64,000 nucleotides of DNA, from sequence record PQ349265.1; one strand, 5' to 3'. Shown in pieces: positions 60,530 through 64,000 of this stretch (position 1 is the stretch's first letter; every line of letters starts with the position of its first letter). The notes beneath the pieces were generated by a model that did no database searches, was not told where the DNA came from, and was given only the letters and a program-made list of their open reading frames with translations. Source of the DNA: Escherichia phage CJY920. Both the position numbers and the translations under genes were made by a program.

Positions 60530-60530
<1 letters not shown>
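60288..60530 (-). CDS. 67: gp67 prohead core protein (80 aa)
   Basis: 80 aa with poly-acidic C-terminus [33 protein letters not shown]. Confidence 0.75.
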
Positions 60531-62155
<1,625 letters not shown>

Positions 62156-62187: not shown

Positions 62188-62679
62188 TTATTCCCAATAA
62201 TCGAGAGCGAGAGTTACTTCAAAGGTTTGGATTTCATTGTTTGAATCCCAATCTAATTGAAGTTCACCCACGTTAGTAGGCCACAAGCCTTTAATTTCGA
62301 CTTCTTTTGTTACAGTTTTAGCGTCACGAGCATATTGGCGAACAACAGCGCTCTTTTTATATTCTGCTGGTTTTCCACCAGTAATTTCGTTCCCTTGCCC
62401 AGCAGCAATGCTTTGCCAATCAACAAACTTCTGGCGAGCATCATGTGCTTCATCGTTCATTACTGTAATAGTCCAGTCATCGAATGTACGATCGCCTGCT
62501 ACGTTAATTTTACGGTTCATAAATCCGACTGGAATTTTTTCTACAATACCAGCTGGTAAAGCAGTGGCTTTACATTGAAACGTAAAATTTTGTCCAAGAT
62601 AAGAAATTTCTACTTGGAATAAGTTAGGTCGAGCAAAATCACCAGATTCAAACGCTCGTGTTACATCATCTACAAACAT
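62188..62679 (-). CDS. 19: gp19 tail tube protein (163 aa)
   Basis: 163 aa; late promoter at 62693-62700. Confidence 0.85.
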   Translation of the reverse strand: MFVDDVTRAFESGDFARPNLFQVEISYLGQNFTFQCKATALPAGIVEKIPVGFMNRKINVAGDRTFDDWTITVMNDEAHDARQKFVDWQSIAAGQGNEITGGKPAEYKKSAVVRQYARDAKTVTKEVEIKGLWPTNVGELQLDWDSNNEIQTFEVTLALDYWE

Positions 62680-62786
62680 ATTAGCCTCTGTAGTATTTAT
62701 ATCCCTATGTTTAACCTAGGGCATATAGAATTAAAGAATTAAGGATATAGTGTATTTATATGGCCTGCCGAAACAGGCCTTTAGAA

Positions 62787-63278
62787 TCATTCTAGTAAAT
62801 CCCAAAGATCTACGCTATTTCTTTTTGACTTTTCTCGGTTAGATTCCCAAGTGATTATTTCTAAATTTTTTACGCTTGCTATAATTTCCGGCGGAATTAA
62901 ATTATCAAATCCATATTTGATAGATACTTTATGATCGAGTTGGTAAGCACCTTCTACACCGCACACTCCTATTTTATCAGCATTCGGCCATTTTGACCAA
63001 ATTTTTCTTATTTTAGCTGACTTAGTTATAGAATGAACTCTACTAGCATATAATGCAAACTCTTTTCTTTTACCAGTCCATCGAGGATGTTTATCGCCTC
63101 TTTGCCATGGTCTGCTTATTCCGGATTGAACTTCCGAATTTTTAATAGCAACTTGTTTAATACTACATTTTCTACATGCATGTGTGGGTGTTCTATTTAA
63201 AAGCTGAATGCTTCTACTAAATTTAATACCGCACAAATCACATTTAGCGTCAACTATTTTATTACTATTCTTTGGCAT
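62787..63278 (-). CDS. putative HNH homing endonuclease with N-terminal zinc ribbon (163 aa), between genes 18 and 19
   Basis: CDLCG...CRKC Cys pairs; HNH-like YQLDHKVSIKYG...NLEIITWESNREKS; no SD, 7-bp hairpin just upstream. Confidence 0.5.
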   Translation of the reverse strand: MPKNSNKIVDAKCDLCGIKFSRSIQLLNRTPTHACRKCSIKQVAIKNSEVQSGISRPWQRGDKHPRWTGKRKEFALYASRVHSITKSAKIRKIWSKWPNADKIGVCGVEGAYQLDHKVSIKYGFDNLIPPEIIASVKNLEIITWESNREKSKRNSVDLWDLLE

Positions 63279-63409
63279 TAATTCTATTGGAACAGATACT
63301 GTATCATGTTATGATACTTTATATCCTAGAATTGTCGACCACATTTTTGAATGATTTCTTGGTTTTATTGTAACAAACTTAGAAATAATCACTTGTTTCC
63401 TCGAGAATA

Positions 63410-63424
63410 GGGGCCGAAGCCCCA
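63410..63424 (-). terminator. terminator hairpin after gene 18
   Basis: GGGGC-UUCG-GCCCC on the minus strand immediately after the gene 18 stop. Confidence 0.7.
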
Positions 63425-63431
63425 CAATCAA

Positions 63432-64000
63432 TTAACCTGCAAGACCAGTTAACTCATCGAAATCTGCGCCAGTAGCAGTTGCGACGAAATTAAGTTGGAT
63501 ATAATTTATACTACGAGCCGGTTGGATGTAGAATGTTGCAACAAACTCATTTCTATCAATTACTGACGGAGTGTTATTTGTTGTATCGCAAACTACACGA
63601 TATTCATAAATTCCACCGAGAGCTTTAATTCCCTGTAAGTATTGGGCAGTTTCTGTGCGGAATGATGAACGAGTAAACGCGTTGTTTAATTCGAATAAAC
63701 GATATTTTGAACTACGTCCGATATTCGTTTTCAACATATTAAACAGACGACGAACGTTAATACGATCAAATGGAGAAGGAACAGAAGTAGCTGTTTTATC
63801 ACCATACAATACGTAACCATCACCACCTGTACCGGTTACCGGGTTGATAGCTTCTTGATATAAACGGTCGCGCTGAGCCTGGCGAGTTTCAATAGCAAGT
63901 TTAATAACGTTAAGAATCTGGCCGCGATTATAACCAGCTGGAGACATCCAAGTCTGAGAAACGTTATCAGTTCTTGCGCATAAACCTGCAATATCAGCTG
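63432..64000 (-). CDS. 18: gp18 tail sheath protein, C-terminal part (5' end outside window)
   Basis: Open reading frame runs to the window edge; C-terminus ...IDFDELTGLAG; position adjacent to gene 19. Confidence 0.85.
   Translation of the reverse strand, partial: ADIAGLCARTDNVSQTWMSPAGYNRGQILNVIKLAIETRQAQRDRLYQEAINPVTGTGGDGYVLYGDKTATSVPSPFDRINVRRLFNMLKTNIGRSSKYRLFELNNAFTRSSFRTETAQYLQGIKALGGIYEYRVVCDTTNNTPSVIDRNEFVATFYIQPARSINYIQLNFVATATGADFDELTGLAG

Follow-up and report, generated by a model that had tools for sequence, protein, structure and literature searches.

The open reading frame (ORF) between the tail sheath and tail tube genes of the window, that is, the whole 64,000-nucleotide stretch of Escherichia phage CJY920 (PQ349265.1) analyzed here, is a copy of ORF19.1 of phage T6, and its present form, a frame of 163 codons, exists solely through a nonsense mutation that is unique to this sequence. 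With a probability that we put at about 65%, the locus carries a free-standing HNH endonuclease gene, probably of the homing kind, in a recently inactivated or N-terminally truncated copy: the T6-type ORF19.1 cassette.

The 201-codon frame and its stop codon

A preliminary description of this DNA had presented the 163-codon ORF as a gene in its own right with a regulatory hairpin ahead of it, and had given no strand. The genes in this part of the window all lie on the minus strand, and the elements of the frame and its neighbors are as follows.

62188-62679, minus strand: gp19 (tail tube)
62787-63278, minus strand: 163-codon ORF opening with ATG, equivalent to ORF19.1 residues 39-201, with zinc finger and nuclease domain kept
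63309-63311, minus strand: in-frame ochre codon TAA at codon 28, which is TAT (Tyr28) in T6 and in phage Ptacy1496
63312-63392, minus strand: ancestral ORF19.1 codons 1-27, now a 27-residue stub, matched by the family hidden Markov model (HMM) over positions 1-27
63390-63392, minus strand: GTG start of the ancestral ORF19.1 frame
63399-63402, minus strand: Shine-Dalgarno (SD) sequence GAGG, 6 nt 5' of the ancestral GTG
63432-63434, minus strand: stop codon of gp18 (tail sheath)

Read from the gp18 stop, the frame is open for 40 codons, meets the TAA at 63309-63311 and, ten codons later, reaches the ATG; the spacing between gp18 and gp19 is 752 nt and holds the 163-codon ORF. The ORF is not a complete gene, because the same frame runs up to the GTG at 63392 and is broken only by the TAA. 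The ORF itself, the CDLCG and CRKC cysteine pairs and the YQLDHKVS...NREKS block are all present as first reported, and the lack of an SD sequence remarked on at the time is true of the ATG at 63278, which has no purine-rich SD before it; the ancestral GTG does have one, GAGG. The apparent absence of a ribosome-binding site (RBS) thus arises because the stop codon has cut off the true start.

T6 carries this very gene in the same position, with ∼98% nucleotide identity, and the hairpin, SD, GTG start and junctions of the T6 gene are identical to those of the window copy, which departs from it by the TAA at codon 28 and by one I/T change at residue 56. Both in T6 and in Ptacy1496 the 201-codon ORF19.1 is uninterrupted, with TAT at codon 28, from which TAA is one T-to-A change away, at position 63309 (plus-strand coordinate). 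T6 ORF19.1 has long been known but is annotated only as a hypothetical protein; no functional study of it was found in the literature, where queries for ORF19.1 or gp19.1 returned only Candida genes or unrelated phage papers.

The frequency of the two alleles was assessed with a pair of 41-nt megablast probes centered on codon 28 and run against 50,697 phage genomes. The TAA probe matched none of these records and the TAT probe matched 66. The exact 163-residue product, looked up in public assemblies, has no record there. Over 24 kb the closest records are DCP2 (97.2%) and T6 (96.8%), and the best matches are all T4/T6-type phages (Tequatrovirus), none of them identical. Every other copy that we checked is intact in one frame, the window copy alone being split. 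Besides the stop, the window copy differs from T6 and Ptacy1496 by 9-12 synonymous as against 1-2 nonsynonymous changes, counting codons upstream of the internal ATG, and this synonymous excess, extending as it does above the ATG, argues that the 201-codon frame has been under purifying selection and that the stop is recent. The family conserves residues of the N terminus but not the internal Met. A 163-codon ORF without an SD, together with a normal start from which only a stub can be made, points to a recently inactivated or N-terminally truncated allele, and the window copy has presumably lost its function.

Programmed recoding or bypass of the T4 gene 60 type was considered and rejected, as 66 relatives carry the sense codon TAT at the position of the stop; nor do the 30 nt ahead of the ATG offer a landing codon that matches the take-off codon TCA. 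The window holds no Rfam RNA family and no tRNA gene that might act as a suppressor.

Hairpins upstream of the two starts

Two hairpins lie upstream of the internal ATG, one of them inside the ancestral frame and the other at the edge of the cassette.

63301-63317: perfect 7-bp palindrome GTATCAT-N3-ATGATAC with a 3-nt loop, inside the ancestral frame, the stop codon overlapping the loop
63410-63423, minus strand: GC-rich hairpin GGGGC-UUCG-GCCCC, −10.8 kcal/mol, at the 5' edge of the cassette

The palindrome, likened in the preliminary description to the RBS-masking control of other T4 endonuclease genes, is indeed present, 22 nt upstream of the ATG at 63278. It covers neither an SD nor the AUG at 63278, however, and lies within what is an intact frame in relatives, the true start being the GTG at 63392, and the proposed control is not supported. 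With a free energy of −5.8 kcal/mol the structure is weak, and it recurs in T6 and Ptacy1496 within intact coding sequence. The window contains 99 perfect hairpins (stem of at least 7 bp, loop of 3-8 nt), compared with ∼40 in shuffled sequences, and 12 of the 99 have a 3-nt loop; the palindrome is not beyond chance. Alleles of the RB3 type have unrelated sequence in this region, and the palindrome is therefore not conserved in the family. Hairpins of the RBS-sequestering type, known from I-TevI, segB and mobE, pair with the SD or the start, which neither the palindrome nor the hairpin at 63410-63423 does.

The latter stands immediately upstream of the GAGG, leaves it uncovered and is conserved in T6 and Ptacy1496. 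It resembles the arrangement in seg43(25) of Aeromonas phage 25, where a stable hairpin lies just 5' of the RBS and does not sequester it (PMC2988022), like GGGGCUUCGGCCCC before the ORF19.1 SD. The hairpin that is comparable with that of seg43(25) is accordingly this one and not the palindrome; seg43(25) differs in being a GIY-YIG gene, and a regulatory role is unproven both there and for ORF19.1.

A sigma-70-like match, TCGACA-16-TATCAT (10/12), spans 63311-63338 on the minus strand, its −10 hexamer being the 5' arm of the palindrome. It is overlapped by TATAAAGT, which departs from the late-promoter motif TATAAATA by two mismatches. The sigma-70-like match is probably due to chance, the number of such matches in the region being equal to the shuffle expectation.

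A sporadic cassette with diverged flanks

The insert and the elements at its edges are these.

62788-63431, minus strand: 644-nt cassette, absent in T4, which replaces 8 nt (TACGGTGC) of the 18-19 intergenic region
62762-62779, minus strand: hairpin common to T4 and the window, just 3' of the cassette and outside the insert
63483-63515, minus strand: patch of clustered, mostly synonymous differences at the 3' end of gp18, in the codons for ARSINYI(T/Q)LNFVA

The boundaries were placed by alignment with T4 and T6 and from the junctions of six empty-site relatives, and the range under which the element was first described, 62787-63431, nearly coincides with them. The left junction falls directly after the gp18 stop, and the TGA of the ORF straddles the right junction, between GAATG and ATTCTAAAGG. 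T4 shares with the window the downstream hairpin, two TATAAATA late promoters and gene 19, and it has only 116 bp between genes 18 and 19, in line with the preliminary description.

With junction probes, the site was found empty in 368 phage records (T2 and T4 among them) and filled in 117; about a quarter of T4/T6-like phages carry the ORF19.1 cassette at this spot. The T6-type 5' part occurs in 66 of the 117 filled records. The VR-phage group is polymorphic, with L101 filled and L100 and L102 empty, and the gene of L101 sits at another point of the intergenic region, abutting the start of gp19. The cassette is thus a self-contained intergenic gene, present or absent in close relatives and with a clean junction, as a free-standing endonuclease gene is. 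The early view of an insertion in a structural operon agrees with the absence from T4 and with a sporadic distribution that is typical of a mobile gene of that kind.

The flank on the gp18 side is locally diverged. Identity between T6 and T4 is 85-87% over the last 100 nt of gp18, the minimum for the gene, and between L101 and L100 it is 72-85% in the last 250 nt of gp18 compared with 97-100% farther off; the comparison of empty with empty stays at 90-100%. The dip between T6 and T4 consists of the patch at 63483-63515. The peptide that it encodes, ARSINYI(T/Q)LNFVA, is almost invariant in T4-like phages, and the patch is a candidate homing target or co-conversion region. A target-site "immunity" signature in the gp18 codons of filled versus empty genomes was sought and dropped as inconsistent.

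A predicted HNH domain with an N-terminal zinc finger

In ORF19.1 a helical linker joins a C-terminal HNH (ββα-Me) domain to a small domain at the N terminus that carries a four-Cys zinc finger. The window retains the following parts.

63165-63242, minus strand: four-Cys zinc-finger region, CDLC...CRKC (C51, C54, C73 and C76 of T6)
62829-62945, minus strand: HNH (ββα-Me) core, YQLDHKVS...NLEIITWESNREK, with D153, H154, N176 and N185 (T6 numbering)

The N-terminal half forms a small β/α domain around the finger, whose four cysteines are invariant or nearly so in family alignments A3 and A4; the DUF4379 treble-clef model gives weak matches in nine of 22 members. In an alignment of 44 diverse C-terminal domains (A6) exactly four residues are invariant, namely D153, H154, N176 and N185, set in the motif G-x-YQLDH-x-x-S-x-K-x-GF...NLq-x-i-p-W-x-x-N-r-x-K, and by its sequence this D/H/N/N pattern is an HNH core of the H-N-N type. 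D153-H154 ("LDHK") is invariant in A3, A4 and A6 alike and falls in strand E34-38 of the domain model, and N176 ("NLE") and N185 ("SNREK") supply the invariant asparagines expected, one being structural and the other a metal ligand in the helix that follows. The domain modeled on its own (predicted local distance difference test score of 93) adopts a ββα fold, and ∼28 of its 35 structural matches are HNH/ββα-Me nucleases. The best of these, the small nicking endonucleases Gme HNH (PDB 4h9d) and phage GVE2 HNH (5h0o) and the HNH domains of Cas9, share with ORF19.1 the DH...N...N catalytic arrangement.

Domain libraries gave a different picture. Searches of Pfam, NCBIfam, PADLOC and PDB (phmmer and profile) identified no nuclease domain, and curated HNH models had no significant match in the window protein, in 22 family members or in 10 distant members; the best HNH-model match was to HNH_4 in a single member (E = 0.078), and the sole HNH match in the PDB profile search was the Cas9 HNH domain (E = 0.37). 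The HMM search for HNH and zinc-ribbon domains that had been proposed as a check thus returned no significant Pfam HNH match, whereas the invariant motif and the predicted fold do support the assignment, and the description of the product as an HNH-type nuclease with a zinc finger stands on this other footing. ORF19.1 probably has nuclease activity. When the C-terminal domain profile (A6) was compared with PDB, matches to leucine-rich repeat (LRR) proteins also appeared; they were rejected, as "PxxIGxIxNLQxIxWxxN" resembles LRR units by chance. The helix-strand segment "PxxIGxIxNLQxIPWxxN" reaches E = 1e-8 against Leptospira LRR proteins and is a trap for automated annotation.

In PHROGs the protein falls into phrog_5104, "unknown function" (E = 4e-70), a profile that reaches ∼45 positions N-terminal of the 163-residue ORF. 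The size of the family is considerable: a profile search of 1.84 billion cluster representatives gave 6,943 matches at E ≤ 1e-3 and 113 at E ≤ 1e-30. Seven members (P0093, P0103, P0115, P0119, P0120, P0171 and P0188) are 347-406 residues long, with a full-length ORF19.1-like N-terminal 200 residues followed by ∼150-200 extra ones. The three that were scanned, P0093, P0115 and P0171, have no Pfam match, and these long members could be fusions or read-through gene calls.

Homologs in other phages

The annotated homologs that we examined, in RB3, Escherichia Bp7, Klebsiella Roth19, Acinetobacter Mokit, Serratia CHI14, Aeromonas AS-zj and Sinorhizobium phiM7, all lie between the sheath and tube genes. 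The family alignment picked up 80 IMG/VR loci, and the arrangement gp18-homolog-gp19 (and gp20) is seen in 53 of these; the position is kept even where gp18 is just 35-48% identical to that of T4. The single inverted case among the 53 is at 2501-2965 of L042 (IMG/VR 3300009563_000455), where the homolog between gp19 and gp18 is on the opposite strand.

Constancy of place is accompanied by a history that does not follow that of the neighbors. Where gp19 is identical, the ORF19.1 proteins can be just 40-64% identical, and pairs with ∼30% identity in gp19 reach 56% in ORF19.1 (some over the C-terminal 140 residues only). The RB3 allele is a mosaic, ∼30% identical to T6 in its N-terminal 130 residues and nearly identical in its C-terminal 75. 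This decoupling of ORF19.1 from gp19, together with the mosaic, is what horizontal movement would leave. Comparison of the 18-19 region across T4-like genomes, suggested at the outset as a way to judge mobility, accordingly gave a conserved position, sporadic presence and a phylogeny incongruent with the neighbors, the last two being signs of mobility.

The remaining IMG/VR loci share the nuclease domain alone, fused to different N-terminal parts, some with DUF7487 repeats. Such proteins are found at classic homing sites, in the nrdA/nrdB gap and the gene 47/46 gap, and also after gp23 beside a NUMOD3 protein and after a DnaB-type helicase. One of them, a 372-residue protein in L081:503-4348 (IMG/VR 3300040781_000109), lies between an intein-containing nrdA and nrdB, the gap that MobE occupies in T4. 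In Bp7 (NC_019500; L010:2769-3350) a second annotated HNH gene lies between gp19 and gp20, besides the ORF19.1 homolog, so that the tail tube gene is bracketed by two nuclease genes. Kinship of this second gene to the ORF19.1 family was rejected, hhalign showing none.

The labels given to ORF19.1 homologs vary: "holin" in vB_EcoM_SYGD1, "type II restriction endonuclease" in Klebsiella Roth19, "putative head morphogenesis protein" in SF2-1, T6 (AP018814) and WL-3, "HNH endonuclease" in Ptacy1496 and Citrobacter Ursula, and "hypothetical protein" in the remainder.

Origin and fate of the window copy

A homing-type gene specialized on the sheath-tube junction is the reading best supported; the homing character of the cassette is suggested by its anatomy and distribution and by its likeness to the T4 genes of the Seg and Mob groups (PMC2988022, PMC2790892). 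MobA-MobE of T4 are, like ORF19.1, one-gene intergenic cassettes between conserved genes, sporadic in T-even phages, and both kinds of protein have an HNH domain fused to a separate presumed DNA-binding module (PMC2790892, PMC2988022); MobE lies between nrdA and nrdB (PMC2790892, PMC2988022). The order of the domains is reversed, with HNH being N-terminal in the Mob proteins and C-terminal in ORF19.1, which has its zinc finger at the N terminus. On this analogy, late transcription of gene 18 would run on into the cassette. In a mixed infection the protein would nick or cleave the DNA of phages whose 18-19 junction is empty, the cut probably falling within the conserved last part of gene 18, and recombinational repair would copy the cassette and its flanks into the recipient phage. 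In the window copy the single T-to-A change has made codon 28 an ochre codon; the normal start can yield only the 27-residue stub, and the 163-codon ORF could be expressed at best weakly, through reinitiation. An allele of this kind would fit the decay phase of the homing-endonuclease life cycle.

Several observations weigh against the view of a decaying homing gene. Two genomes with an empty site also carry the variant gp18 patch, whose codon pattern does not hold across the family. Kinship with T4 MobE was rejected, hhalign of alignment A4 giving a probability of 0.1% (MobE alone was compared), and no cleavage or homing experiment on the ORF19.1 family was found in the literature searched. 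A place strictly between gp18 and gp19 despite very deep divergence, and the intact state of the other copies, would also fit a useful resident gene. Naturally shorter members that lack about the first 30-35 residues occur in some distant lineages, and by analogy with these the 163-residue product could retain activity if made. Finally, a single-base stop could be a sequencing error.

The main rival is that ORF19.1 is a resident accessory nuclease of the late tail/packaging operon of T4-like phages, inherited mostly vertically and often lost, the window copy being a loss in progress. We regard it as unlikely, and equally tentative are the uses that such a nuclease might have, in excluding competitors, processing DNA or countering host defence. 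The gp18-gp19 position is constant from Tequatrovirus to the T4-like phages of Sinorhizobium, Aeromonas, Acinetobacter and marine and freshwater sources, which speaks for residence, as do the intact copies, the invariant catalytic residues, the predominance of synonymous substitutions and the fact that the homing reading has no direct evidence behind it. A resident gene would not be expected, however, to be just 40-64% identical where gp19 is identical, and the absence of ORF19.1 from 368 of ∼485 close relatives, including T4 and T2, means that it is dispensable. Mosaic alleles, relatives of the nuclease domain at classic homing-endonuclease sites and flanks locally diverged in two lineages likewise tell against residence and favor the homing gene.

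It is distinctly less probable that the phage has an intact 201-codon ORF19.1 and that the TAA reflects a mistake in sequencing or assembly, or a variant present in a minority. The difference from 66 relatives is indeed one base, and there is no other decay, the remaining differences from T6 being synonymous or conservative; the sequence has no hint of low quality, however, the base is outside any homopolymer run and the neighboring genes are intact.

Least probable of all, and in our view very improbable, is the original proposal of a functional 163-residue ORF whose translation from the AUG at 63278 is controlled by an RBS-masking-type 7-bp hairpin upstream: its frame is open with zinc finger and HNH core kept, shorter members in distant lineages start near this point and the sigma-70-like TCGACA-16-TATCAT lies just upstream (63338-63311), but the hairpin, at −5.8 kcal/mol and not beyond chance, covers neither an SD nor that AUG and in 66 relatives falls within the coding sequence of an unbroken gene, the Met varies across the family and lacks an SD, the stop that creates the ORF is unique to this sequence and promoter-like matches are as frequent in shuffled sequence.

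Implications

ORF19.1 is thus uncharacterized but belongs to a kind of element that is well known, and this copy of it is broken. For annotation, the gene should be entered as ORF19.1 with an interrupting stop codon rather than as a 163-residue gene under hairpin control. The proteins that resemble ORF19.1 make up a large and experimentally unexplored family of nucleases, one that the domain libraries miss, which is why its members are mostly called "hypothetical" and now and then mislabeled "holin", "head morphogenesis protein" or "type II restriction endonuclease". Should ORF19.1 be a homing endonuclease, it would add to the forces behind marker exclusion and mosaicism around the tail genes of T-even phages, with a bearing on how recombination between therapeutic T4-like phages is read.

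A bolder interpretation, which we offer as a doubtful one, is that ORF19.1 represents a very large HNH family missed by Pfam (∼6,900 cluster representatives) that across the whole T4-like superfamily is locked to the sheath-tube junction, its target being the nearly invariant end of gene 18 that codes for ARSINYI(T/Q)LNFVA; its specificity would be reset by swaps of the N-terminal zinc-finger module, as between the T6 and RB3 types. If true, this would provide a natural system for the co-evolution of homing-endonuclease specificity with an essential structural gene, and the window allele would be either a decay intermediate caught in the act or a truncated form that is still active.

Other observations

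The record of Ptacy1496 (PQ863253; L002:1-1505) splits the portal gene, gp20, into two neighboring coding sequences, 1-1179 and 1188-1505, which suggests a frameshift, a stop or a sequencing error. In the window, the mechanically called ORF for gp20 (portal; 60530-62116, minus strand) opens at a TTG four codons 5' of the Met of MKFNVLSLF...; T4 gp20 presumably starts MKFNVLSLF..., which makes the ATG the likely start of the gp20 of the window.
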